From the NCBI GenBank assembly GCA_902571005.1, contig CACGAG010000002.1, positions 4,095 to 68,094 of the forward strand: a DNA stretch of 64,000 nucleotides, read 5' to 3'. Positions 30,217 to 60,595 of this stretch are shown in pieces; position 1 is the stretch's first letter, and every line of letters starts with the position of its first letter. The DNA comes from an uncultured Pelagibacteraceae bacterium. Lineage in GTDB: Bacteria; Pseudomonadota; Alphaproteobacteria; Pelagibacterales; AG-422-B15. A program made the position numbers and the translations under genes. Under the pieces are notes generated by a model. It worked only from the letters and a program-made list of their open reading frames with translations, was not told where the DNA came from and ran no database searches.

Positions 30217-31083
30217 TTGGAGGAAACAGTGCAATCATCATTGCCAGAAAATTTAATTAAAATTGAAAATAATTTAAAATCTCTTACAAGAACAAGATCA
30301 ATTTATTCTTTTCTCTCAATTGCGGCATTGATAGCAGTTATTTATTCGGGTTTAATTGTAGCAGAAACAGGAAATGCGACTAGCATCTGGGTTGGATTAC
30401 CTAAATTTTTCGATTACCCAGTTGATCTATTTGTTGGGTCATGGGAATACGGCTATAGATGGAATTTATTGTTACTTGAATACCTTCCAGATTTAATAAG
30501 CACTATTAATATGGCTCTATTTTCAACAGCAATGGGTACGTTGCTAGCCTTTTTTTTAAGTATTTTTTCAAGTCGTAATCTAATCAAAAGTAAAACTACT
30601 GTATTAATATTTCGACGCATCATGGATATATGCAGATCGTTTCCAGAATTAGTTATTGCGCTTGTTTTGTTGTATCTACTGGGAAAGTCAGCACTGCCTG
30701 CTGTAATTGCCATCATAATTCATACCGCAGGAGCTCTTGGCAAATTGTTTTCAGAAGCTATTGAGAATGTCGACAAAAATCCAATTGAAGGTCTTGAGTC
30801 CTGTGGAGCTTCATGGTTTACCAGAATAAGATTTGGTGTGGTAACTCAGGCACTCCCTCTATTTCTAACTTACACAATTTTAAGATTTGAAATTAATATA
30901 AGGGCTTCAACTATTTTGGGATTTGTTGGCGCTGGAGGTATCGGTGAGCAACTTTACACTAATATACAGTGGAAATATGAAGCTGACACTATTGCAATAA
31001 TGTTTTTACTTGTGTCTACGATCATTGCATTGGATTACTTATCAAGTTATTGGCGAAAATCATTAATAGGATTGAAATCATGA
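30217..31083 (+). CDS. phnE: Phosphonate ABC permease (start may be GTG 30229)
   Basis: RSFPELV, GKLFSEAIE, FEINIRASTILG.VGAGGIG. Confidence 0.93.
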   Translation: MEETVQSSLPENLIKIENNLKSLTRTRSIYSFLSIAALIAVIYSGLIVAETGNATSIWVGLPKFFDYPVDLFVGSWEYGYRWNLLLLEYLPDLISTINMALFSTAMGTLLAFFLSIFSSRNLIKSKTTVLIFRRIMDICRSFPELVIALVLLYLLGKSALPAVIAIIIHTAGALGKLFSEAIENVDKNPIEGLESCGASWFTRIRFGVVTQALPLFLTYTILRFEINIRASTILGFVGAGGIGEQLYTNIQWKYEADTIAIMFLLVSTIIALDYLSSYWRKSLIGLKS

Positions 31084-32980: not shown

Positions 32981-33325
32981 CTACACCTCTTCTAATAACG
33001 TACAAAAGCCAGGATCACTACCATTAAAAAAAGTTTCTAAATTAGAAGAACAGTGATTAATCACACATTGGTCTGACTCATAAAAATAATCATCAATATT
33101 TTTAGCTGATTTAATATTCTGCAACATACAAAGACTATACTCATTGAAGTTACTGCTAGGATGAGTATTAAAATATATTTCACAATTAATTATTGTCTCA
33201 TCGTACCCTATTTCTAGAGATGAAGTGTTTTGAAAGTAAGCTATACAACTCTTAAAGTCGTCAGCATAGATGTTTGTGCTCAGCAGAATTTTAAAAATGA
33301 ACATTAAAAGCACGAATCGTTTCAT
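32981..33325 (-). CDS. Hypothetical exported protein with six Cys
   Basis: Signal peptide ending IYA; 6 Cys in 114 aa. Confidence 0.65.
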   Translation of the reverse strand: MKRFVLLMFIFKILLSTNIYADDFKSCIAYFQNTSSLEIGYDETIINCEIYFNTHPSSNFNEYSLCMLQNIKSAKNIDDYFYESDQCVINHCSSNLETFFNGSDPGFCTLLEEV

Positions 33326-33362
33326 GTAATATTATTGTAATATTTCTTAACATTTTTGTAAT
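33324..33362 (+). promoter_or_regulatory. Pho-box-like array upstream of the MFS gene
   Basis: ATGTAAT/TTGTAAT/TCTTAAC/TTGTAAT at 10-11 bp spacing. Confidence 0.5.
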
Positions 33363-33457
33363 ATTTAAAAATTGGTAAACAATCTATTTTTTAACTATTG
33401 TAAAAATAACAAATTTATTCAATGACTTATAAAAATAAATACTAAACAGGCATCAAG

Positions 33458-34672
33458 TTGAAAGAAAATAATAGTTTATTTCCTGTTCATACTATTGGAA
33501 TTGTAACAATCATTGGTTACGGATTTTTATTCTATACTATTGCCCCATTAAAAGAGTATATCTCACTGCACACCAATTTAAGTGAGGAATTAATTCTCAC
33601 AATGTTTAGTTTAGCACTGTTATTTCAAGCCCTATTAGCGCCTCGGATTGGAAAATGGTCAGACCATCATGGAAGCCTAATCGTAATTAAATATGGCCTG
33701 TTATTAGGTATGATAGGCTCAATTTTTATTGGAATAACAGAGGTTGATTTATTTATTTTCAAAAATGTATTGTGGGTGTTTATTTCTATGTTTCTAATTA
33801 CCTTGGGGCTTGGTATGTCAACCTATGAAGTAGCGTTTAATGCAGCAGTCCAAATGGATGAAATCAATTCTAGAAAAAATATTTCAATAATTACTTTTTA
33901 TGGAGCGGTAGCAAGCACTATTACCTGGCTTTCAATTTATCCACTTATTTACAATGTAGGCTTATTCTATACGTGTTTATTTATTTCAATTATTTTATTA
34001 ATTGGCTATGTACTTGTGTCCTCAAAGGAAATGAAATACAAATCAAATATAGAATACTTAAATGAAAGTAAGTTATTATTTAATTGGAATGAGCTAAATA
34101 AGACTCAAAAAAAATCATTTTTTTACATTACAATATCCTCTTCTTTACAAAATTTTTTTTTTGTAGCATTCACCCTAGCATTGGTAAATTTTTTTACAGA
34201 AACATTTAATGACATTAGTATCGCGGTTTTACTTGCGAGTATATATGGCCCGTTTCAACTTGTAGGAAGATACTTGGAGATGAAAATTGGAAAGCATTAC
34301 GACGCAAGATATACAGGCTTAATAGCCTTTTTGTTTGTAATTTTTTCAATTTTTACAGCTCAATTTACAAATAATATTTCTGTTGCCGCAATTAGTATGG
34401 CTTTTTTCGGGATGGGTCACGGTGTTTTAACAATAACATATGGTTATGTCACCAATATGTATTTTGAGTCACAAATTTATGGCCAAGCTAAAGGGTGGAT
34501 GGCCCTTTCAAGGAGCATTAGCTTTGCCGTAGGTCCAGCAGTAGGTGCATTTCTTTTTGCGTATAATTTAAACTTATTTACGATTACGATTGTAATAACT
34601 GCAATCTTATCAGCGTTTTCTTTCTTACTAATAATTTTCGAGAAACCTACAAATCAAATGCACGAATTATAA
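33458..34672 (+). CDS. MFS transporter, ArsK/YbfB-like subfamily
   Basis: ~12 TM; IIGYG..FY, APRIGKWSD, YEVAF, ASTI.W, GPFQLVGR. Confidence 0.75.
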   Translation: MKENNSLFPVHTIGIVTIIGYGFLFYTIAPLKEYISLHTNLSEELILTMFSLALLFQALLAPRIGKWSDHHGSLIVIKYGLLLGMIGSIFIGITEVDLFIFKNVLWVFISMFLITLGLGMSTYEVAFNAAVQMDEINSRKNISIITFYGAVASTITWLSIYPLIYNVGLFYTCLFISIILLIGYVLVSSKEMKYKSNIEYLNESKLLFNWNELNKTQKKSFFYITISSSLQNFFFVAFTLALVNFFTETFNDISIAVLLASIYGPFQLVGRYLEMKIGKHYDARYTGLIAFLFVIFSIFTAQFTNNISVAAISMAFFGMGHGVLTITYGYVTNMYFESQIYGQAKGWMALSRSISFAVGPAVGAFLFAYNLNLFTITIVITAILSAFSFLLIIFEKPTNQMHEL

Positions 34673-42902: not shown

Positions 42903-43331
42903 TTATTTAAGCAAATTTTCTTTTATTAATTGATCAATATAATCAAATGTAGATCTAAAAAACTTTTTGTGATCGACTTCGTTTAAGTTCTGTTTAACGG
43001 GGTCTTCAATATTGAAATGAAATGTTTTTGGAGCACCCGGCCAGATCGGACATGTTTCTTTAGCGGCATTTCCACACACAGTAACGACATAATCCATAGA
43101 GGGAGAGTTGGGCTCACCAAATACGTCCCAACTTTTACTATAGAGTTTCTCAGTCGGTATTTTCATATCATCTAATAAATCGAGTGTTTTAGGATTTATT
43201 ATTCCTGAAGGTGTGCTACCAGCGCTATAGCCTTTCAGACTTTCACTATATTTATAATTGGTAATTGCCTCAGCTATAATGCTTCTGGCTGAATTTTGCG
43301 TACATAAATATAAAACATTTTTAATGCTCAT
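42903..43331 (-). CDS. arsC: Arsenate reductase, LMW-PTP type
   Basis: LCTQNSARS, SAGS.P, SKSW, VTVC.NAA.ETCP.WPG, EDP. Confidence 0.9.
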   Translation of the reverse strand: MSIKNVLYLCTQNSARSIIAEAITNYKYSESLKGYSAGSTPSGIINPKTLDLLDDMKIPTEKLYSKSWDVFGEPNSPSMDYVVTVCGNAAKETCPIWPGAPKTFHFNIEDPVKQNLNEVDHKKFFRSTFDYIDQLIKENLLK

Positions 43332-44014
43332 ATACCAAGAGAATATCCAGCAGATCTAATTGTTCTAATTGGGTCGTATTCAAATCCTTCGTTTAATGCT
43401 TTTCTTAATCTTCTGATATGAACATCAACTGTTCTAGGCTCGACATATGGACTTGTAGTCCATACATAATCTAATAATTGTTGTCTTGAAAATACTTTAC
43501 CTTGATTTTCCATTAAAAAACGCAATAAATTAAATTCCGTAGGTCCAAGACTTATTTCTGTTTTATCCCTGGTGACACGATGCGTTGAAACATCTAATTG
43601 AATTCCCTTATAAGTAAGAACTTCATTATAAAAAATAGGTCTTAAGCGTTTGAGTACTGCTTTAATTCTTGCTACTAACTCATTGACTGAAAATGGTTTT
43701 GTTATGTAGTCATCAATTTCAGTTTCAAATGCTCTTAATTTATCTTCTTCTTCTCCTTTAGCTGTGAGCATAATTAAAGGAATGTTCTTTGTAGTTTTAT
43801 CTTTACGTACTCGTCTACACAATTCTAACCCAGAAATATTTGGGAGCATCCAGTCAACGATTATGAGATCGTATTTAATATCACCAAATATACTATCCAA
43901 TGCGCTATCGCCATCAAAGCATACGTCTACATCAAATCCACTAGCTGTGAGATTGTATTTTAATAATTCAACTATTGAGACTTCATCCTCAATTACTAGG
44001 ATTTTAGGTTTCAT
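43328..44014 (-). CDS. phoB: Phosphate regulon response regulator
   Basis: DWMLP, KPFS, LGPTEF.LL, RTVDVHIRRLRK; TAATG overlap with phoU. Confidence 0.95.
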   Translation of the reverse strand: MKPKILVIEDEVSIVELLKYNLTASGFDVDVCFDGDSALDSIFGDIKYDLIIVDWMLPNISGLELCRRVRKDKTTKNIPLIMLTAKGEEEDKLRAFETEIDDYITKPFSVNELVARIKAVLKRLRPIFYNEVLTYKGIQLDVSTHRVTRDKTEISLGPTEFNLLRFLMENQGKVFSRQQLLDYVWTTSPYVEPRTVDVHIRRLRKALNEGFEYDPIRTIRSAGYSLGI

Positions 44015-44706
44015 TACACCTTTTCCCACTTAATTCTTTTTTCCGACTTACGTTCTAAGGCTTGACCAGTTGTAATGAAGTGAATGTCTTCAGCAATATT
44101 TTGAACATAATCTCCTATTCTCTCTATGTTTTTAGCAATCGACAATAAGTGTGAACAGCCTGTAATTGTATCTGGGTCTTCTGCCATCGTCTTAAGAAGA
44201 TCCCTGTAAATTGATAAATACAATTCATCAATATCGCCGTCTAAATCCCAAGCATTAATTGCTAGCGTATCTGATTTTTGAACGAAGGCATCTAAAACAT
44301 TTTTTATCATTCTTTGAACGTTCTCACCCATATTGACAATTTCTGAAACCGGCGTGTCGGGCATATTTATTTTTACATTTGCAACTCTTTTAGCAATATT
44401 GGTAGCGTGATCACCCATTCTCTCGAGATCGTTTGCAATGCTTAGTGCCGAAAGTACGGTTCTTAAATCATTAGCAAGCGGTTGCCTCATTGCAATTACT
44501 TTGTATGTTAAAGCATCAATTTCCTTTTCTAAGGCATCTATTTTATTATCATCTCTTAAAATTTCTTCTGCAAAAGCAGTATCTTTATCACCCAAAGCAA
44601 CAAGAGAATTGTGAAGCTGTGTTTCAACCAATCCTCCCATTTTAATTAATGTACTATTTATTAAATCTAATTGCTCATCATAAGATGAAACTATGTGTTC
44701 ACTCAT
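44014..44706 (-). CDS. phoU: Phosphate signalling protein
   Basis: EHIVSSYD, RQPLANDLR, LERMGDHA, ERIGD. Confidence 0.95.
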   Translation of the reverse strand: MSEHIVSSYDEQLDLINSTLIKMGGLVETQLHNSLVALGDKDTAFAEEILRDDNKIDALEKEIDALTYKVIAMRQPLANDLRTVLSALSIANDLERMGDHATNIAKRVANVKINMPDTPVSEIVNMGENVQRMIKNVLDAFVQKSDTLAINAWDLDGDIDELYLSIYRDLLKTMAEDPDTITGCSHLLSIAKNIERIGDYVQNIAEDIHFITTGQALERKSEKRIKWEKV

Positions 44707-49324: not shown

Positions 49325-49353
49325 ATTACAAAATTATAACGTTTTTGTTACAT
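49325..49353 (-). promoter_or_regulatory. Pho box upstream of pstS
   Basis: ATGTAAC/ACGTTAT/TTGTAAT at 11 bp spacing. Confidence 0.65.
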
Positions 49354-50091
49354 TTTTATGAACGTCGGTTTCTCGTTAAAATTTAAATAACTGATTTTAT
49401 TAAGATATTTAAAGGGAAGGTAAATTAGTGAGAATATAATAACTGTTAACACAGCCAAATAAGGAATATGCATTGGAGGAGATGGAAATATATCCAAAAG
49501 TGTGTTCGCGGCAGGCGTAATCATTAAATACCAATAATTTACATCTTTAAAGAATTGCGAAATATAAATATTTAATCCATAAATTATAGGTAATAAGCAA
49601 ATGGCAAACAAAAGAACTCGTAAAACTGACCACCAGGTTAATTGAACCTTCGTGCATACACAGGCATATATTACACCAAGCAGTAATAAACCATGGCCAA
49701 AATAATAAGTAATATATTCTGCATCAGGAAATGAGAAATCCAAATCTGGTGTAATGATTGCAAGGAAATTTCCACTTAATCCAAAAAAATAACCTACTTC
49801 GAAAAAGAATTTAATATTTGTAAACACATATAACCCCATTGATATTGCGGCTATATGGCAAATGTGTAATGGCAATACGTCGTAAATAGAATGATCATAA
49901 AATATCACTCGATAAAATGGTTTTATTATCTCATGAGAAATTAATATAAAACCAATTAACAAAAAAATTGATCTAGTTACATTTTTATTATTTATAAATC
50001 GAACAAAGAAAGGAAATAAAATTGAAATAGTCACAATTGTGAAAATTGTTGCCAAATGATGATAACCAAACAAAACAAATTGAGTCGCCAT
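49348..50091 (-). CDS. YwaF/TIGR02206 (TMEM164-family) membrane protein
   Basis: LPLHIC, AIITPD, YYFGH, NYWYL..P...LLD. Confidence 0.85.
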   Translation of the reverse strand: MATQFVLFGYHHLATIFTIVTISILFPFFVRFINNKNVTRSIFLLIGFILISHEIIKPFYRVIFYDHSIYDVLPLHICHIAAISMGLYVFTNIKFFFEVGYFFGLSGNFLAIITPDLDFSFPDAEYITYYFGHGLLLLGVIYACVCTKVQLTWWSVLRVLLFAICLLPIIYGLNIYISQFFKDVNYWYLMITPAANTLLDIFPSPPMHIPYLAVLTVIIFSLIYLPFKYLNKISYLNFNEKPTFIKM

Positions 50092-50131
50092 ATCTTATTT
50101 TAACCAAGATTTGTTAAACTATTATTGCACC

Positions 50132-55372: not shown

Positions 55373-55873
55373 TTATATTGATGCAGCGTAATCAATTATG
55401 CTATTTTGAATTTTTATTAATACATCGTTATCGGAGGTTGATTTTATCCAATTATTATTTTTTAATTCTTGAATGAATATTCTTATGTCTAAGGAATCTG
55501 CTGTTAAATCATCACCAACAATATAAACATCAATTTTAATGCGGCTGTTTATATCTTTTTCAATTGAAAACCAATCAGTCAATATAAAGTAGTCTTCTTT
55601 GTTGGCTTCCAACACCGGCATGAATGACAACTTTGCAAGTGAAGCCTTCCATAGCTTTTCTTTATTATTAATTAAATTGTCATTGTTGATTGAGAGTGAT
55701 TTACTTATTTCATCGTTTATCCATTTATTAAGGCTTATCCCCCTTGAGTTAGGATCTGCTGCGTCTTCTCCTCTTATATGGCCAGAGTCTGCCCTTTCTA
55801 TGCTTAATGGAAGTTGAGCGCAGTTAGTGAGAGTGACTAAAATAAAAATGAAAAAAAAATATGCTTTCATCAC
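55373..55873 (-). CDS. DUF3576-like lipoprotein
   Basis: Lipobox LTNC, LWKASL..LSFMP, ILTDW. Confidence 0.75.
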   Translation of the reverse strand: MMKAYFFFIFILVTLTNCAQLPLSIERADSGHIRGEDAADPNSRGISLNKWINDEISKSLSINNDNLINNKEKLWKASLAKLSFMPVLEANKEDYFILTDWFSIEKDINSRIKIDVYIVGDDLTADSLDIRIFIQELKNNNWIKSTSDNDVLIKIQNSIIDYAASI

Positions 55874-55881
55874 TTATTAAT

Positions 55882-55910
55882 ATTACAAGATTGTTACATA
55901 TTTATTAAAA
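55882..55910 (-). promoter_or_regulatory. Pho-box-like array upstream of the DUF3576 gene
   Basis: TTTTAAT/ATGTAAC/TTGTAAT at 11 bp spacing. Confidence 0.55.
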
Positions 55911-55979: not shown

Positions 55980-56912
55980 TTAAAAGCCAATTTTGTAGCC
56001 AATGAAGAAGTTTTCAACATCCTCATTTGAACCCACAGAAGCAACATGATATTCAAGTGATGCTTTTACGCCTCCACCGAATGACTTTTGCAAGGAAGCA
56101 ATAGAGCCATCGTCATCAGCCGTTGCGCCAGGATTATCTACATCAAAATACTCGTATTGAAAAGTTGCACCCAATCCAGGAATCTTTGGCGTTTTCACAC
56201 CTACTACTGTATAGCTGTCACCGCTATCTGAATCGTATAGACCATAACCAATCGTGTAACCTGCAAGTTTAGGTGCTTTAATACCAATCATATAGTTTTC
56301 ATCCCCAGTTCTAGAGTCCGTATTGCCTTCATCGACAATGCCTCCTTTGACTGAAAAACCGGCGATCTTTCCAGATATTGAATAAGCCATTGTGTCGTCA
56401 TAACCAGCCGTTGTTCCAAATCCGATACCCGCTTTAACAGTAAATCCATTTATCTTAGGTGATGTGTAGACAATTTGGTTGCTATCATCAAAACCTGCTG
56501 CACCAGTAACGCCATCACCATCTTCATAATCAGCGCTTAGGCCTTGAGGTAATTTTCTAGAGCTTGCAAATGATGATTTTACAGGATGGCTATCCATACT
56601 ATCAACGGGGCCGCCTGAGAGACCATTACCAAAAGAAACTGTGCCCATGTCAGAAATGAATGAAATATCAAAATCACCACCTCCACCAGACTCGTAAGCC
56701 ATGACACCTTCTATACCTATACCATTGTCTAATGTATCTGTATAAGTCACGTATGCTGATTCTGTTATTGATATTCTTTCCTGAGACGCGTAAGAATCTC
56801 CAGATCCCCACAAGCCATTAAAAGTACCGCCAACAGTTACATCTGCTTGCGCACTTGAAAGAGCCATTATACTAGCAAGTGCAGTCGTCGCACTTAAGAT
56901 TTTGTTGTTCAT
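55980..56912 (-). CDS. Outer-membrane porin (alphaproteobacterial type)
   Basis: Signal peptide AQA, TLDNGI, YTSPKINGF, C-terminal IGYKIGF. Confidence 0.85.
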   Translation of the reverse strand: MNNKILSATTALASIMALSSAQADVTVGGTFNGLWGSGDSYASQERISITESAYVTYTDTLDNGIGIEGVMAYESGGGGDFDISFISDMGTVSFGNGLSGGPVDSMDSHPVKSSFASSRKLPQGLSADYEDGDGVTGAAGFDDSNQIVYTSPKINGFTVKAGIGFGTTAGYDDTMAYSISGKIAGFSVKGGIVDEGNTDSRTGDENYMIGIKAPKLAGYTIGYGLYDSDSGDSYTVVGVKTPKIPGLGATFQYEYFDVDNPGATADDDGSIASLQKSFGGGVKASLEYHVASVGSNEDVENFFIGYKIGF

Positions 56913-57193: not shown

Positions 57194-58201
57194 TTATTTT
57201 GCAACGCGTGATACAGTTTGATGTGACAAAAACAGCTTAGAAACCTCCTGCCAATCAAACTTTTTACTATAATTTATACAATCTGTACGACTCACTTTTC
57301 TCGCCTTATCAATTGAATTAATTAAATTATGATCAAGACAATTATGTTTAAAATTATCAAAAACATCAATTGGACCTGGAACAGGATATGCGGCCACAGG
57401 AAGTCCACTGGCGAGAGCCTCGATCATGACCATTCCAAACGTATCTGTTTTACTTGGAAATACAAAGATATCTGAAGATGCATAGTACTGGGCCAGTTCA
57501 TTTCCTTTCTTCGCTCCTACAAAAACTGCATCAGTATATTTTTTTTCTAATTTTTTCTTAGAGGGTCCATCACCTACAAGTAGTTTTGTGCCTTTTAAAT
57601 TTAATTTAAGAAAATCTTCTAATGATTTTTCCTTAGATATTCTTCCTACATATAAATAAATTGGTTTTTCTAAATTGAGATCAATCTTGTTCTTCGGATT
57701 AAAAGCTTTTATATCAACGCCCCTGGACCATTTAACTGTCCTTTTAATTCCATGTGAATTAAGTTCATCTATAATTGAATTAGAGGATACCATTACTGCG
57801 CTAGAATTTTTGTGAAACCATTTCAAAATTTTATATGTAAAAGATACAGGTATCTTAGCCATCGTGTTTATATATTCAGGAAATTTTGTACAATACGAGG
57901 TTGTAAACGCATAATTATTCTTTGAACAATAATTCCTAACCGCTAAGCCAATAGGTCCCTCTGTAGCAACGTGTATAAAGTCAGGCTTAAACTTCTCAAT
58001 GATCACGCCAATTTTGAACCAATGATTAATCGCAAGTTTTATTTCAGGATAAATAATCAGTGGAATTGTAATAAATTTATCTGGAGTTATATACCTAACC
58101 TCATGTCCTTGACTTGTAAGTTCATCACCAAGTGTTTGATAAGTTCTAACAACACCATTTATTTGAGGGAGCCATGCGTCTGATGCGATGAGTATTTTCA
58201 A
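57194..58201 (-). CDS. agt: GT4 glycosyltransferase (Agt-type glycolipid synthase)
   Basis: SDAWLPQINGVVRT, HVATEGP.G, FPSKTDTFG.V..EALASG.PV; coupled to plcP. Confidence 0.8.
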   Translation of the reverse strand: MKILIASDAWLPQINGVVRTYQTLGDELTSQGHEVRYITPDKFITIPLIIYPEIKLAINHWFKIGVIIEKFKPDFIHVATEGPIGLAVRNYCSKNNYAFTTSYCTKFPEYINTMAKIPVSFTYKILKWFHKNSSAVMVSSNSIIDELNSHGIKRTVKWSRGVDIKAFNPKNKIDLNLEKPIYLYVGRISKEKSLEDFLKLNLKGTKLLVGDGPSKKKLEKKYTDAVFVGAKKGNELAQYYASSDIFVFPSKTDTFGMVMIEALASGLPVAAYPVPGPIDVFDNFKHNCLDHNLINSIDKARKVSRTDCINYSKKFDWQEVSKLFLSHQTVSRVAK

Positions 58202-59020
58202 TTAACTTAATACCTTTACGGAGTCCTTATGTTTGTTGATAATTTCATACTTTTCAGCGATATCTTTCCAGAAAAGAATTTCCATTGATCCATCAAAATT
58301 TTCTATCATAAAGGAGCAACTTTCTACCCAGTCCCCATCATTATAGTAATGAACTCCATTTATTATTCGATGTGAAGCATGGTGAATATGTCCGCAAATA
58401 ACTCCTTTTAGATTTTTCTTTTTTGCATAACCTGCAACTATTTCTTCGTACTTATTAATGTAAGAAACAGCATTTTTTACTTTTAATTTTAGATACTTTG
58501 AAAGCGACCAATATTTCAAACCCAATAATAATCTTAATTGATTAAATCTTCTATTTAGCCATAAAGCTAAATCGTATGCGCTAGCGCCAAGATGGGCTAA
58601 CCAGGGTGCGATATTGATAATTGAGTCAAATTTGTCTCCATGGAGTATAAGATATTCAGATCCATCTACTGTCTTATGTTTGATTTCATTAACTACTCTA
58701 ATTTCGCCTAGTGTTATTGGCACAAATTTTCTAACAAGCTCATCATGATTTCCTGATACATAAAACACTTTAGTTCCATGTCGTGCTTTTCTTAGAATTT
58801 TTTGTATTACATCACTGTGACTTTGTGGCCAGTACCATCTATTTTTAAGTCGCCACCCATCTATAATATCTCCAACTAAGTATAGGTAATCTGATCTGGT
58901 ATTTTTTAAAAAATCAAGCAACTGTTCAGCTTGACAGCCTTTTGACCCTAAATGAATATCTGAAATAAATATGGAACGATATTTTAAGAGAGGAATAACA
59001 TTATTTTTTTCGTTGACCAT
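58202..59020 (-). CDS. plcP: PlcP phospholipase C (LpxH-like metallophosphoesterase)
   Basis: ISDIHLG, VGDIIDGW, GNHD, HGD.FD, CGHIH, NDGDWVES. Confidence 0.85.
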   Translation of the reverse strand: MVNEKNNVIPLLKYRSIFISDIHLGSKGCQAEQLLDFLKNTRSDYLYLVGDIIDGWRLKNRWYWPQSHSDVIQKILRKARHGTKVFYVSGNHDELVRKFVPITLGEIRVVNEIKHKTVDGSEYLILHGDKFDSIINIAPWLAHLGASAYDLALWLNRRFNQLRLLLGLKYWSLSKYLKLKVKNAVSYINKYEEIVAGYAKKKNLKGVICGHIHHASHRIINGVHYYNDGDWVESCSFMIENFDGSMEILFWKDIAEKYEIINKHKDSVKVLS

Positions 59021-59100
59021 AAATTTGGTAAAAAAGAATCAATCTTCATTACATTACCAATAATTTATGAAAGATTTGTTAAGCTATACTTTCTAGAAAT

Positions 59101-59156
59101 CTGTCATAAAATTTTAATATTCTTGTAATTTTTATGACAAAATTAAAAATTATAAT
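59101..59156 (+). promoter_or_regulatory. PhoB-type promoter: four 11-bp-spaced half-sites, 10-bp spacer, TATAAT
   Basis: CTGTCAT 59101, TTTTAAT 59112, TTGTAAT 59123, ATGACAA 59134, TATAAT 59151. Confidence 0.7.
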
Positions 59157-59162
59157 TTAATC

Positions 59163-59247
59163 ATTGAGTAACTAGACAGAAGACTGAACTTCCTCATTTA
59201 ATCCTCCACCCTTCCAAATATAAATGGGGAAGTTCTTCTCTTATTTC
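59163..59247 (+). ncRNA. Candidate Pho-regulated sRNA with an anti-SD loop
   Basis: 15-bp stem 59186-59200/59221-59235 (one U-G pair), loop AUCCUCCACCCUUCCAAAUA; ends approximate. Confidence 0.55.
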
Positions 59248-59309
59248 AATTAGGGTAATTTGTATATTGGGATCATTATAAGAAAAAAGAGGAAAAATCA
59301 GGATTTTAT

Positions 59310-59348
59310 AAAAAAAAAGACCCGTCCAAGTATAAATTGAACAGGTCC
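59310..59348 (-). terminator. Rho-independent terminator
   Basis: GACCTGTTCAA...TTGGACGGGTC followed by T9 on the minus strand. Confidence 0.8.
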
Positions 59349-59370
59349 TTAATTTATAGATTAAGTATGT

Positions 59371-59790
59371 TTAAAATGTTCTACCAATTCTCATTCCTGC
59401 CCTGTCGTACAAGACATTCATCAGAATGAAGACAAGTATACTAGCCACCATAGGAACTGGATTAGCGCCCCCATCTTCGCCCATAAATAAAACAATTTGC
59501 CTTATAGAAGTAACAAAGGATCCAACCAACATCATTCTAAAAAACACTGTAGATTGTTCAATTGGTGCCAGTAAACATGCAGTAAAACCTACTGCAAAAA
59601 CTATATAAACCCACCCGAGATTTGCAAACAGCTGAATATGTGCTGCATCAACATCGCTCGGATTTGTTCCTATTCGCTCTGCAAAGGCTAATACCGGCTC
59701 ATTGTCTATAAACATAAAACCATAAAAGAGAAATAAAACTATTAAGAAACAAATTATTACTCTGCTTATTGTGTCTTCAACTTTAATCAT
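59371..59790 (-). CDS. Hypothetical 4-TM membrane protein
   Basis: AGGAGG RBS; hydrophobic; own terminator. Confidence 0.75.
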   Translation of the reverse strand: MIKVEDTISRVIICFLIVLFLFYGFMFIDNEPVLAFAERIGTNPSDVDAAHIQLFANLGWVYIVFAVGFTACLLAPIEQSTVFFRMMLVGSFVTSIRQIVLFMGEDGGANPVPMVASILVFILMNVLYDRAGMRIGRTF

Positions 59791-59800
59791 TTTGTTCCTC

Positions 59801-60595
59801 CTAAAAATTACTTTGGTTTCTGAAAAAGATAGTCAAAAATACAATGAAATTTAGAACTATAAAAAATGCCAATAATGGATTACCACCATCGGGAAATGTC
59901 ACACTTCCAACTAACATTGCACAAAAGAACATCGTTCCTGCCACTGCACTCATTGATACTAAAACTCCACTCAGTCCAGCTCTGAACTGATAAACAAGAG
60001 CAATCAGTATAGCTATGTTTATCATAGTTATTCCTAATACACTGTGTTCAGATTGAGGATTGCTCTCTAATAATGGAGACTGCTCAATAAAACCACCTGG
60101 ATATATGAAGTATGAAACAACATTAAACAGCACTGCGGCAATTGCAATATACCCCATGATTTGAGTTGTTTTATCAGTAACTCCAAACGGACTTCCAGCT
60201 TTCTCAATTGCAAGTGGATAACCAGCTCTAAATCTTGCTATGGCTAATAGCACAAACAAAATTATCCATGCATAAAGACCGGTATAGTTTTCTCCACCGC
60301 TTAGCTGCAATGACATCACAACCCATATTAATTGAAGTAGAACGACAGGCAGTGCATAAGCAAAAAACGCCCTCTCTAACCCTTTCAAACCCATATATAA
60401 AATGCCTACATAGGCTACAAAATTAACCGCTCCAAACCAATTTAAGAAAAATTCTGTAGTTATGTTATCTTCGAATGTTGGGTATCGATCAATCATGTAA
60501 TCATAATTGAACATCATAATGCACCCATAAACGAAGAATATTAAGCCTGAAATAAACATACAGGCTTTAATTACGTTATCGTCTGTTTTAAACAT
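59801..60595 (-). CDS. Hypothetical ~8-TM membrane protein with an internal duplication
   Basis: AGGGGG RBS; two similar halves. Confidence 0.75.
   Translation of the reverse strand: MFKTDDNVIKACMFISGLIFFVYGCIMMFNYDYMIDRYPTFEDNITTEFFLNWFGAVNFVAYVGILYMGLKGLERAFFAYALPVVLLQLIWVVMSLQLSGGENYTGLYAWIILFVLLAIARFRAGYPLAIEKAGSPFGVTDKTTQIMGYIAIAAVLFNVVSYFIYPGGFIEQSPLLESNPQSEHSVLGITMINIAILIALVYQFRAGLSGVLVSMSAVAGTMFFCAMLVGSVTFPDGGNPLLAFFIVLNFIVFLTIFFRNQSNF

Follow-up and report, generated by a model that had tools for sequence, protein, structure and literature searches.

The window considered here, that is, the whole 64,000-nt stretch of DNA that was analysed, carries a phosphate island with phnCDEE, phnF, phnGHIJKLN, phnM, phoB, phoU, pstBACS, phoR, ppx and ppk1, at the edge of which a 350-nt spacer separates two minus-strand genes. 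To the left of this spacer lies a gene for a plcP-like metallophosphoesterase (58202..59020, minus strand), related to LpxH and scoring below the LpxH cut-offs; it is directly abutted by an agt-like GT4 glycosyltransferase gene (57194..58201, minus strand), after which comes a porin gene (55980-56912, minus strand), the spacer being located upstream of this plcP-agt-porin lipid-renovation operon. To the right, the neighbouring gene (59371-59790) is closed on the minus strand by an intrinsic terminator of 14 pairs followed by a T run (59316..59350). The presumed activator of the island is encoded by phoB (43328..44029, minus strand; TIGR02154, 301 bits, above the cut-off). The initial annotation described the motifs of this site correctly and overlooked that the adjoining minus-strand gene is plcP. 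A plcP-agt lipid-renovation operon was reportedly described in SAR11 by Carini in 2015, and plcP was found here in 138 of the 298 genomes sampled from the order. According to the available text of PMC4796936, the plcP-agt arrangement occurs in phosphate-starved SAR11 and in other marine bacteria, plcP is a member of the Pho regulon, and Pho boxes lie upstream of plcP clusters; the window has the same succession of LpxH-like phosphoesterase and GT4 glycosyltransferase with Pho boxes upstream, to which its genus, unlike the known operon, adds an opposite-facing Pho array and a predicted hairpin RNA.

The regulation of plcP can be accounted for by a proximal Pho promoter (59051..59084, minus strand), which reads GCTTAAC-AAAT-CTTTCAT (59084 to 59067), then 10 nt, then TAATGT (59056 to 59051), and whose variants among relatives (GTTTAAC, CTTTCAC, TAATAT) remain within the consensus. 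In two neighbouring genera, whose plcP is 74-75% identical, the gene is preceded by TTGTAAC-AAAT-GATTAAT, 10 nt and TAAAAT, matching the window's promoter in both geometry and position, and the GATTCTTTTTT leader that follows the promoter is common to the window and to these two genera; in more distant genera the plcP box is TTTTAAC-N4-TTGTAAC, likewise in the orientation of the gene. Since plcP thus has a promoter of its own, with a positional homologue in two neighbouring genera, the distal array described below is not needed to explain how plcP is regulated. On comparison of the genomes, the distal plus-facing array and its hairpin are genus-specific additions, standing back to back with the plcP promoter. 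A contig from RNA library X4 has one end inside plcP and the other at 59065, about 20 nt upstream of where TAATGT would place the start; plcP may therefore have a second, more distal start.

The distal array (59101..59140, plus strand) consists of four Pho-box half-sites at an exact 11-bp period, CTGTCAT (59101-59107), TTTTAAT (59112-59118), TTGTAAT (59123-59129) and ATGACAA (59134-59140), and a 10-nt spacer, AATTAAAAAT (59141-59150), separates the fourth half-site from a -10 hexamer TATAAT (59151..59156) that has no -35 match. Read directly from the sequence, every motif is where the initial annotation had placed it. The fourth half-site is poor in the plus orientation, being the reverse complement of TTGTCAT, and the two outer half-sites form an inverted repeat, TGTCATAAAA ... 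TTTTATGACA. The other phosphate promoters of the window have the common form nTGTAAY-N4-TTGTAAT or TTTTAAT: for example ATGTAAC-AAAA-ACGTTAT-AATT-TTGTAAT, 10 nt and TAAATT at pstS, CTGTAAC-AAAA-TTTTAAT at the porin gene, TTGTAAC-ATAA-TTTTAAT at phnG, ATGTAAC-AATC-TTGTAAT at the gene at 55373, ATGTAAT-ATTA-TTGTAAT at the gene at 33458, and two boxes at phnC. A matrix was built from eight 18-mers of these other boxes, picked by eye and taken in gene orientation, and scanned over the whole 1.26-Mb genome (about 2.5 million positions). The 18-mer at 59101 (plus strand) scores 18.5 bits and ranks sixth genome-wide behind five training sites, which makes it the best non-training match of the genome (the next non-training site scores 17.5 bits), and the in-phase 18-mer at 59112 (plus strand) scores 12.4 bits. 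On the minus strand, the best sites in the spacer reach 1.7 bits (59140) and, for the low-scoring proximal plcP box, -0.6 bits (59084). Other high matches outside the island (C18:1596, C6:66737) lack a downstream ORF and look random, so the matrix is only moderately specific; even with such a matrix, a top-ranking match within a 350-nt spacer of a phosphate island is unexpected by chance.

Both the period of 11 bp and the distance of 10 nt between array and -10 agree with the pstS promoter of the window itself (TTGTAAT, 10 nt, TAAATT), and they also fit the rule of E. coli, where the spacing between the pho box and the core promoter is strict and activation by PhoB depends on it (PMC10294691, as far as its available text goes). 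The array thus shares with the tandem-box promoters of the E. coli pstS type its direct 7-bp half-sites repeated every 11 bp, above the minimum of two and matching the genome's own boxes, their end about 10 bp before the -10, the missing -35, and the encoding of phoB, phoR and phoU in the same island. Unlike them, the candidate promoter points at no gene, and half-sites in its neighbourhood follow a consensus of nTGTAAY or TTTTAAT instead of CTGTCAT. A sigma-70 scan found no -35/-10 pair on the plus strand; its only site in the spacer is a minus-strand TTGTCA-18-TAAAAT (59140-59111), one against 3.4 +/- 1.7 in shuffled sequences, to which no weight was given. Matrix score, orientation, exact spacing, and the conservation of half-sites and -10 described below all back the plus-facing PhoB-type promoter that had been proposed for this site, a reading that is well supported in silico and in which PhoB would bind the array.

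Downstream of this putative promoter, a non-coding RNA of about 85-90 nt is predicted (59163..59250, plus strand), its start being placed from the -10 and its end from a hairpin and a U-rich tail. The hairpin (59186..59235, plus strand) pairs GAACTTCCTCATTTA (59186-59200) with TAAATGGGGAAGTTC (59221-59235) over 15 pairs, of which U59194-G59227 is the sole non-Watson-Crick one, and closes on a C-rich 20-nt loop, ATCCTCCACCCTTCCAAATA (59201-59220), just as had been described from the sequence. The loop core CCTCCAC (59203..59209, plus strand; CCUCCAC in the RNA) matches the 16S anti-Shine-Dalgarno sequence in sense, and the stem is followed by a T-rich tail, TTCTCTTATTTC, given as TTCTCTTATTTCAAT for 59236..59250 (plus strand). 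The plus-strand fold reaches -21.5 kcal/mol (z = -2.68, with 3 of 200 shuffles doing as well), and the minus-strand fold -19.2 kcal/mol (z = -0.36, with 64 of 200 doing as well). No plus-strand ORF of at least 30 aa starts between 59063 and 59337, and a plus-strand transcript would be non-coding in all nine genome contexts examined. An Rfam scan of 58000-60500 with E values up to 10 gave no match over the element.

Could this hairpin simply be a terminator? It resembles intrinsic, partly two-way terminators in that a stem is followed by a T-rich stretch, on the plus strand in the window and also on the minus strand in a divergent clade of relatives. In contrast with the typical terminator, which has a GC-rich stem, a loop of 3-8 nt and a T run, it has an AU-rich stem, a 20-nt loop with an invariant core and a broken T run. 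The terminator scan, which listed only 59350-59316, called it on neither strand, because of the 20-nt loop and the broken T run. A conserved structure exposing a conserved seed, as in trans-acting small RNAs, is what the hairpin offers.

Conservation was followed over 30 copies, comprising 19 genomes of the genus and 11 metagenome contigs in which the element lies beside plcP (16 metagenome loci were considered; three were too short upstream, and in two, which carry distant relatives of plcP, the element is absent). The copies are 85-100% alike, and eight of them form the divergent clade (85-89% identity), which retains the half-sites, the key positions of the -10, the stem and the loop core. 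In the array, 3 of the 28 half-site columns vary (in one, four and one sequences) and 4 of the 12 spacer columns do so; the commonest half-site change, C59105 to A, goes toward the local consensus, and the fixed differences between the main and the divergent clade (59111, 59122 and 59133) all fall in spacers, L073, otherwise of the main type, having those of the divergent clade. Within the -10, all 30 copies keep T1, A2 and T6, and positions 3, 4 and 5 are changed in one, four and three copies (8 of 30), a pattern that would be expected of a working plus-strand -10. The most variable stretch is 59157-59165, the likely start region, where seven of nine columns vary and indels occur, and conservation picks up again at GAGTAAC (59166). 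The distance from the -10 to this conserved block is 9 nt in the window and 6 nt in the divergent clade and in L025, L036 and L073, which fits a start fixed by the -10.

In the hairpin, CCTCCAC (59203-09) is invariant in 30 of 30 copies and 6 of 30 stem columns vary. The pair 59186-59235 is G-C in 22 copies, G-U in six and A-U in two; 59194-59227 is U-G in 21, C-G in eight and A-G in one; 59188-59233 is G-U in a single copy; and the loop-closing pair is lost in the eight divergent copies. Overall, 98.5% of cells are paired, and the three G-U positions (21, 6 and 1 of 30 copies) correspond to A-C mismatches on the minus strand. RNAalifold returns this hairpin alone. Covariation, which had been proposed as a check, yields one pair changed on both sides and is thin, 12 of 500 shuffles reaching the observed score.

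The same alignment bears on the alternative of a leader peptide, according to which a 15-aa sORF on the minus strand (MRKFSLLSSYSMIKL, 59150..59197), with GGAGG five nt upstream, would be translated and control plcP. GGAGG-N5-ATG is present in all 30 copies, and it is kept because it is the complement of the conserved loop and stem. The sORF encodes 17 different peptides of 7-17 aa in these copies, one-nt deletions shifting its frame and three divergent-clade copies having an early stop, so that neither frame nor length is conserved; its start codon falls within the stem, it is followed downstream by the plcP promoter elements, and upstream of it there is no conserved minus-strand promoter, because homology breaks at about 59257-59272. 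The sORF suggested by the initial annotation exists, and what the 30 copies conserve is the stem and the loop, not the minus-strand codons, so that the RNA reading is not refuted by the condition which the initial annotation had set for it; a leader peptide appears highly improbable. Minus-strand RNA was also considered as a CsrA sponge, on account of its several GGA motifs, and this was discarded in view of the absence of any CsrA family match in the 91% complete genome.

The plus-strand RNA, for its part, would be a lineage-restricted feature. A covariance model of the element, searched in 148 genomes sampled from the order, finds one copy each in 19, all of one genus (18 of 43, plus the window's own genome) and exactly those of the genus that have a full plcP, and none in two neighbouring genera (5 and 6 genomes) or in the other family (91 genomes), where weak, AT-rich DNA matches of the spacer (L018-L020) were set aside as chance matches. 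In the other genera examined, neither the distal array nor the hairpin was found beside plcP. Where plcP is missing from a genome of the genus (L015, L016, L017), homology with the window resumes at 59241, five nt after the stem, and the sequence from there onward is a backbone shared with genomes without plcP; the hairpin therefore marks the outermost limit of a cassette that some genomes have and others lack. Each of the nine contexts examined has a minus-strand gene next on the right, which belongs to a fast-evolving membrane-protein pair or, in those from the divergent clade, encodes a ZnuA-like lipoprotein.

Such a position raises the alternative of a relic with no role as an RNA, either a scar left by recombination or a DNA-level hairpin at the island edge, that would have been kept by its linkage to the plcP block. 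The element sits exactly at the 59240/59241 boundary, and, the block from plcP to the hairpin being 96-99% identical among most genomes of the genus, much of its conservation may reflect recent shared descent. Against mere linkage, the stretch 59157-59165 varies and carries indels in the very block where half-sites, key -10 positions, stem and loop core are spared, the divergent clade, at 85-89% identity, keeps all features plus the compensated pair, and the element occurs once per genome and is thus not a repeat. A relic is, for these reasons, quite improbable.

Several observations concern the surroundings of this boundary. On the right of the hairpin, the two genes for membrane proteins (59371-60595, minus strand) match no Pfam or NCBIfam family; they are homologous from genome to genome and have diverged strongly even where the plcP blocks are 95-100% identical (including L024, L029, L032 and L038), a hypervariable pair adjoining a near-clonal cassette. 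To the left of 59240/59241, the three plcP-less genomes have an acyltransferase-like gene about 70% identical to that at 49348-50091 of the window and then a phoR-like gene; the phosphate island has therefore been rearranged between strains. In L037 and L076-L080 of the divergent clade, about 47 nt separate the hairpin from the end of a minus-strand gene for a histidine-rich ZnuA-like lipoprotein, and the hairpin may serve this gene as a terminator.

RNA libraries provide a further line of evidence. Part of 58700-59330 is contained in 18 RNA runs, of which four, from four studies, were examined, all as contigs, which give neither strand nor true ends and whose depth is a poor measure; RNA libraries, moreover, can contain DNA. 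Contigs from three studies cover the hairpin. In X3, a 106-nt contig (depth 22.6) lies on 59166-59252 without differences, and its 12 further letters match the variant of five relatives, for a span of about 59159-59264, the start of which is only 3 nt after the -10. X2 covers 59181-59302 at a depth of 18-24 and includes a 979-nt contig ending at 59255, and an X1 contig over 59218-59452 joins the end of the right-hand gene to the hairpin loop. Both ends of the X3 span, about 59159 and 59264, coincide with strain-variable sites and may be assembly breaks, and the X2 and X1 contigs extend well beyond the supposed 3' end. In one X2 contig, an Illumina read-2 adapter abuts 59182, which would indicate plus-strand RNA only if the library was of the dUTP type. 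No contig of the four runs covers 59066-59158, a gap that is no evidence in either direction, as cover is patchy inside plcP too. The contig cover thus establishes presence in RNA libraries and not a defined transcript, and minus-strand read-through from the right-hand genes would explain the X1 contig and the 979-nt X2 contig no less well than a plus-strand RNA would.

Read-through is central to the main rival explanation, in which the distal array would be a set of auxiliary inverted PhoB sites boosting or tuning plcP, and the hairpin an insulating two-way terminator at the island edge, stopping minus-strand transcripts of the right-hand genes before they enter plcP, the signal in the RNA libraries being the 3' end of such read-through. 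As plcP is a published Pho-regulon gene with upstream Pho boxes (PMC4796936, in its available text), the distal boxes could therefore serve plcP. The outer half-sites of the array form an inverted repeat. An upstream inverted pho box enhances phoE in E. coli, a precedent that counts for auxiliary sites. The hairpin lies at the island boundary; the X1 contig (59218-59452) links the end of the right-hand gene to the loop and the 979-nt X2 contig stops at 59255; and in the divergent clade a perfect stem is followed on the minus strand by the T-rich TTTTCTTTTCTCT, the ZnuA-like gene ending about 47 nt away in six of eight copies with no other obvious terminator. In the window's own clade, however, a strong terminator at 59350-59316 already serves the right-hand gene, and the minus strand of the hairpin has a mid-stem A-C mismatch in 21 of 30 copies and folds no better than shuffles. 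This reading also leaves unexplained the invariant loop core and the perfect TATAAT at the canonical 10-nt distance with unchanging T1, A2 and T6, and auxiliary sites have to be reconciled with an activation by PhoB that is strictly spacing-dependent (PMC10294691, in the part available). On balance, an insulator with auxiliary sites seems somewhat unlikely. If it were nevertheless the case, a mobile phosphate island would carry its own transcriptional boundaries.

The explanation that we tentatively favour is a plus-strand, Pho-dependent small RNA, which we regard as plausible and just short of probable. The phosphate-starvation riboregulator of the initial annotation is consistent with the promoter, the non-coding nature of the transcript, the conservation of the stem-loop and the contig cover, whereas the specificity of its targets is not borne out. 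The proposed target, the phnE ribosome-binding site, does contain TGGAGGA (30218-30224), a motif that occurs 166 times in the genome, and the duplex between the loop and phnE (-12.4 kcal/mol) departs by about 1.8 sd from the average of 6739 candidate start regions (-6.1, sd 3.5). No outlier emerged at start sites from searches with 8-mer seeds against the loop, at ribosome-binding sites from loop duplex energies over these 6739 regions, among the island's own starts, or from the conserved 5' part of the RNA against 3882 regions; most of the top matches, including the best scores, lie inside coding sequence. Neither the loop nor the 5' part thus singles out specific mRNAs by seed or duplex energy, and several island genes have ribosome-binding sites of the GGAGG type. 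In the 91% complete genome no Hfq family match was found. Further points that weigh against the small RNA are a terminator scan that passes over the hairpin, the thin covariation, the poor fourth half-site, the restriction of the element to a single genus and to the island edge, and the choice by eye of the matrix's training sites.

The likeness to AbcR and cuckoo RNAs that had been put forward is loose. According to the available text of PMC4615179, a cuckoo RNA is made up of two to four neighbouring hairpins whose loops each contain CCUCCUCCC, and the window's element shares with these and other alphaproteobacterial anti-Shine-Dalgarno small RNAs a C-rich CCUCC presented by the loop of a hairpin, a feature suggestive of ribosome-binding-site occlusion. 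It differs from them in its single hairpin with CCUCCACCC in place of CCUCCUCCC, in lacking an Rfam match, in a genome without an Hfq match and in a different type of promoter; with one hairpin and no Rfam match, it belongs to neither the AbcR nor the cuckoo family, and the resemblance is one of idea. Small RNAs induced by phosphate starvation are described elsewhere, such as PhoS of Bacillus (PMC11522486) and sRNA132 of Haloferax (PMC6560208), and EsrL of E. coli is phosphate-regulated and contested (PMC10294691), as far as the available parts of these sources go. The predicted RNA would resemble them in being placed under the phosphate-starvation regulator, with no relation in sequence or structure; those RNAs are experimentally supported, while the window's candidate has the contig cover to its credit.

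How might such an RNA act? In the mechanism that we would propose, the spacer would hold a pair of PhoB-dependent promoters set back to back: the proximal promoter (59084-59051, minus strand) would drive plcP-agt(-porin), and the distal one would face the opposite way with its half-sites at 59101-59140, its 10-nt spacer and its TATAAT at 59151-59156. Phosphate limitation would then lead to a non-coding RNA of about 85-100 nt starting near 59163, made up mostly of one 15-bp hairpin with a 20-nt C-rich CCUCCAC loop and probably ended by its U-rich tail. Most likely, the loop would mimic the 16S anti-Shine-Dalgarno sequence and pair with ribosome-binding sites of the GGAGG type, damping the translation of some mRNAs during membrane remodelling without the help of Hfq. 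Taken with all its particulars, namely a genus-specific, PhoB-activated and Hfq-independent small RNA with an anti-Shine-Dalgarno-mimic CCUCCAC loop, travelling with the plcP lipid-renovation cassette, this proposal is unlikely to be right as a whole.

SAR11 cells dominate the surface ocean with very few regulators, and their genomes are thought to rely on these and on riboswitches; to our knowledge, the coordination of their response to phosphate starvation beyond PhoBR is poorly known. A literature search found no phosphate-regulated or trans-acting small RNA reported for SAR11, and none is reported in the available portions of PMC5069720 and PMC3840354. If true, the element would be the first trans-acting riboregulator tied to the SAR11 phosphate response, and would link phosphate scarcity to translational control. 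As an RNA gene it would be lineage-restricted and new; a real RNA would be a simple and testable example of control by RNA in a streamlined genome without Hfq, and its transcript would mark phosphate stress in one oceanic lineage of SAR11.

Other features of the window touch on its phosphate response. A TMEM164-related membrane acyltransferase gene (49348-50091, minus strand) is located between pstS and phoR, and TTTAACAAATCTT, upstream of it (50092-50131), has 12 nt in common with the proximal plcP box; this gene may be a further lipid-remodelling member of the Pho regulon. Dense pho-box half-sites, ATGTAAT-ATTA-TTGTAAT-ATTT-CTTAACA ... TTGTAAT, occupy 33320-33400 (plus strand) upstream of the ArsK-like MFS transporter gene at 33458. 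The listed TTG start of phnE overlaps a GGAGGA motif (30217-30231), and an in-frame GTG at 30229 may be the true start. Finally, a strong pho box (ATGTAAC-AATC-TTGTAAT, 22 bits) at 55873-55900 (minus strand) ends just 10 nt before the listed GTG start of a 166-aa ORF (55373-55873), whose true start is probably further downstream, unless its mRNA is almost leaderless.
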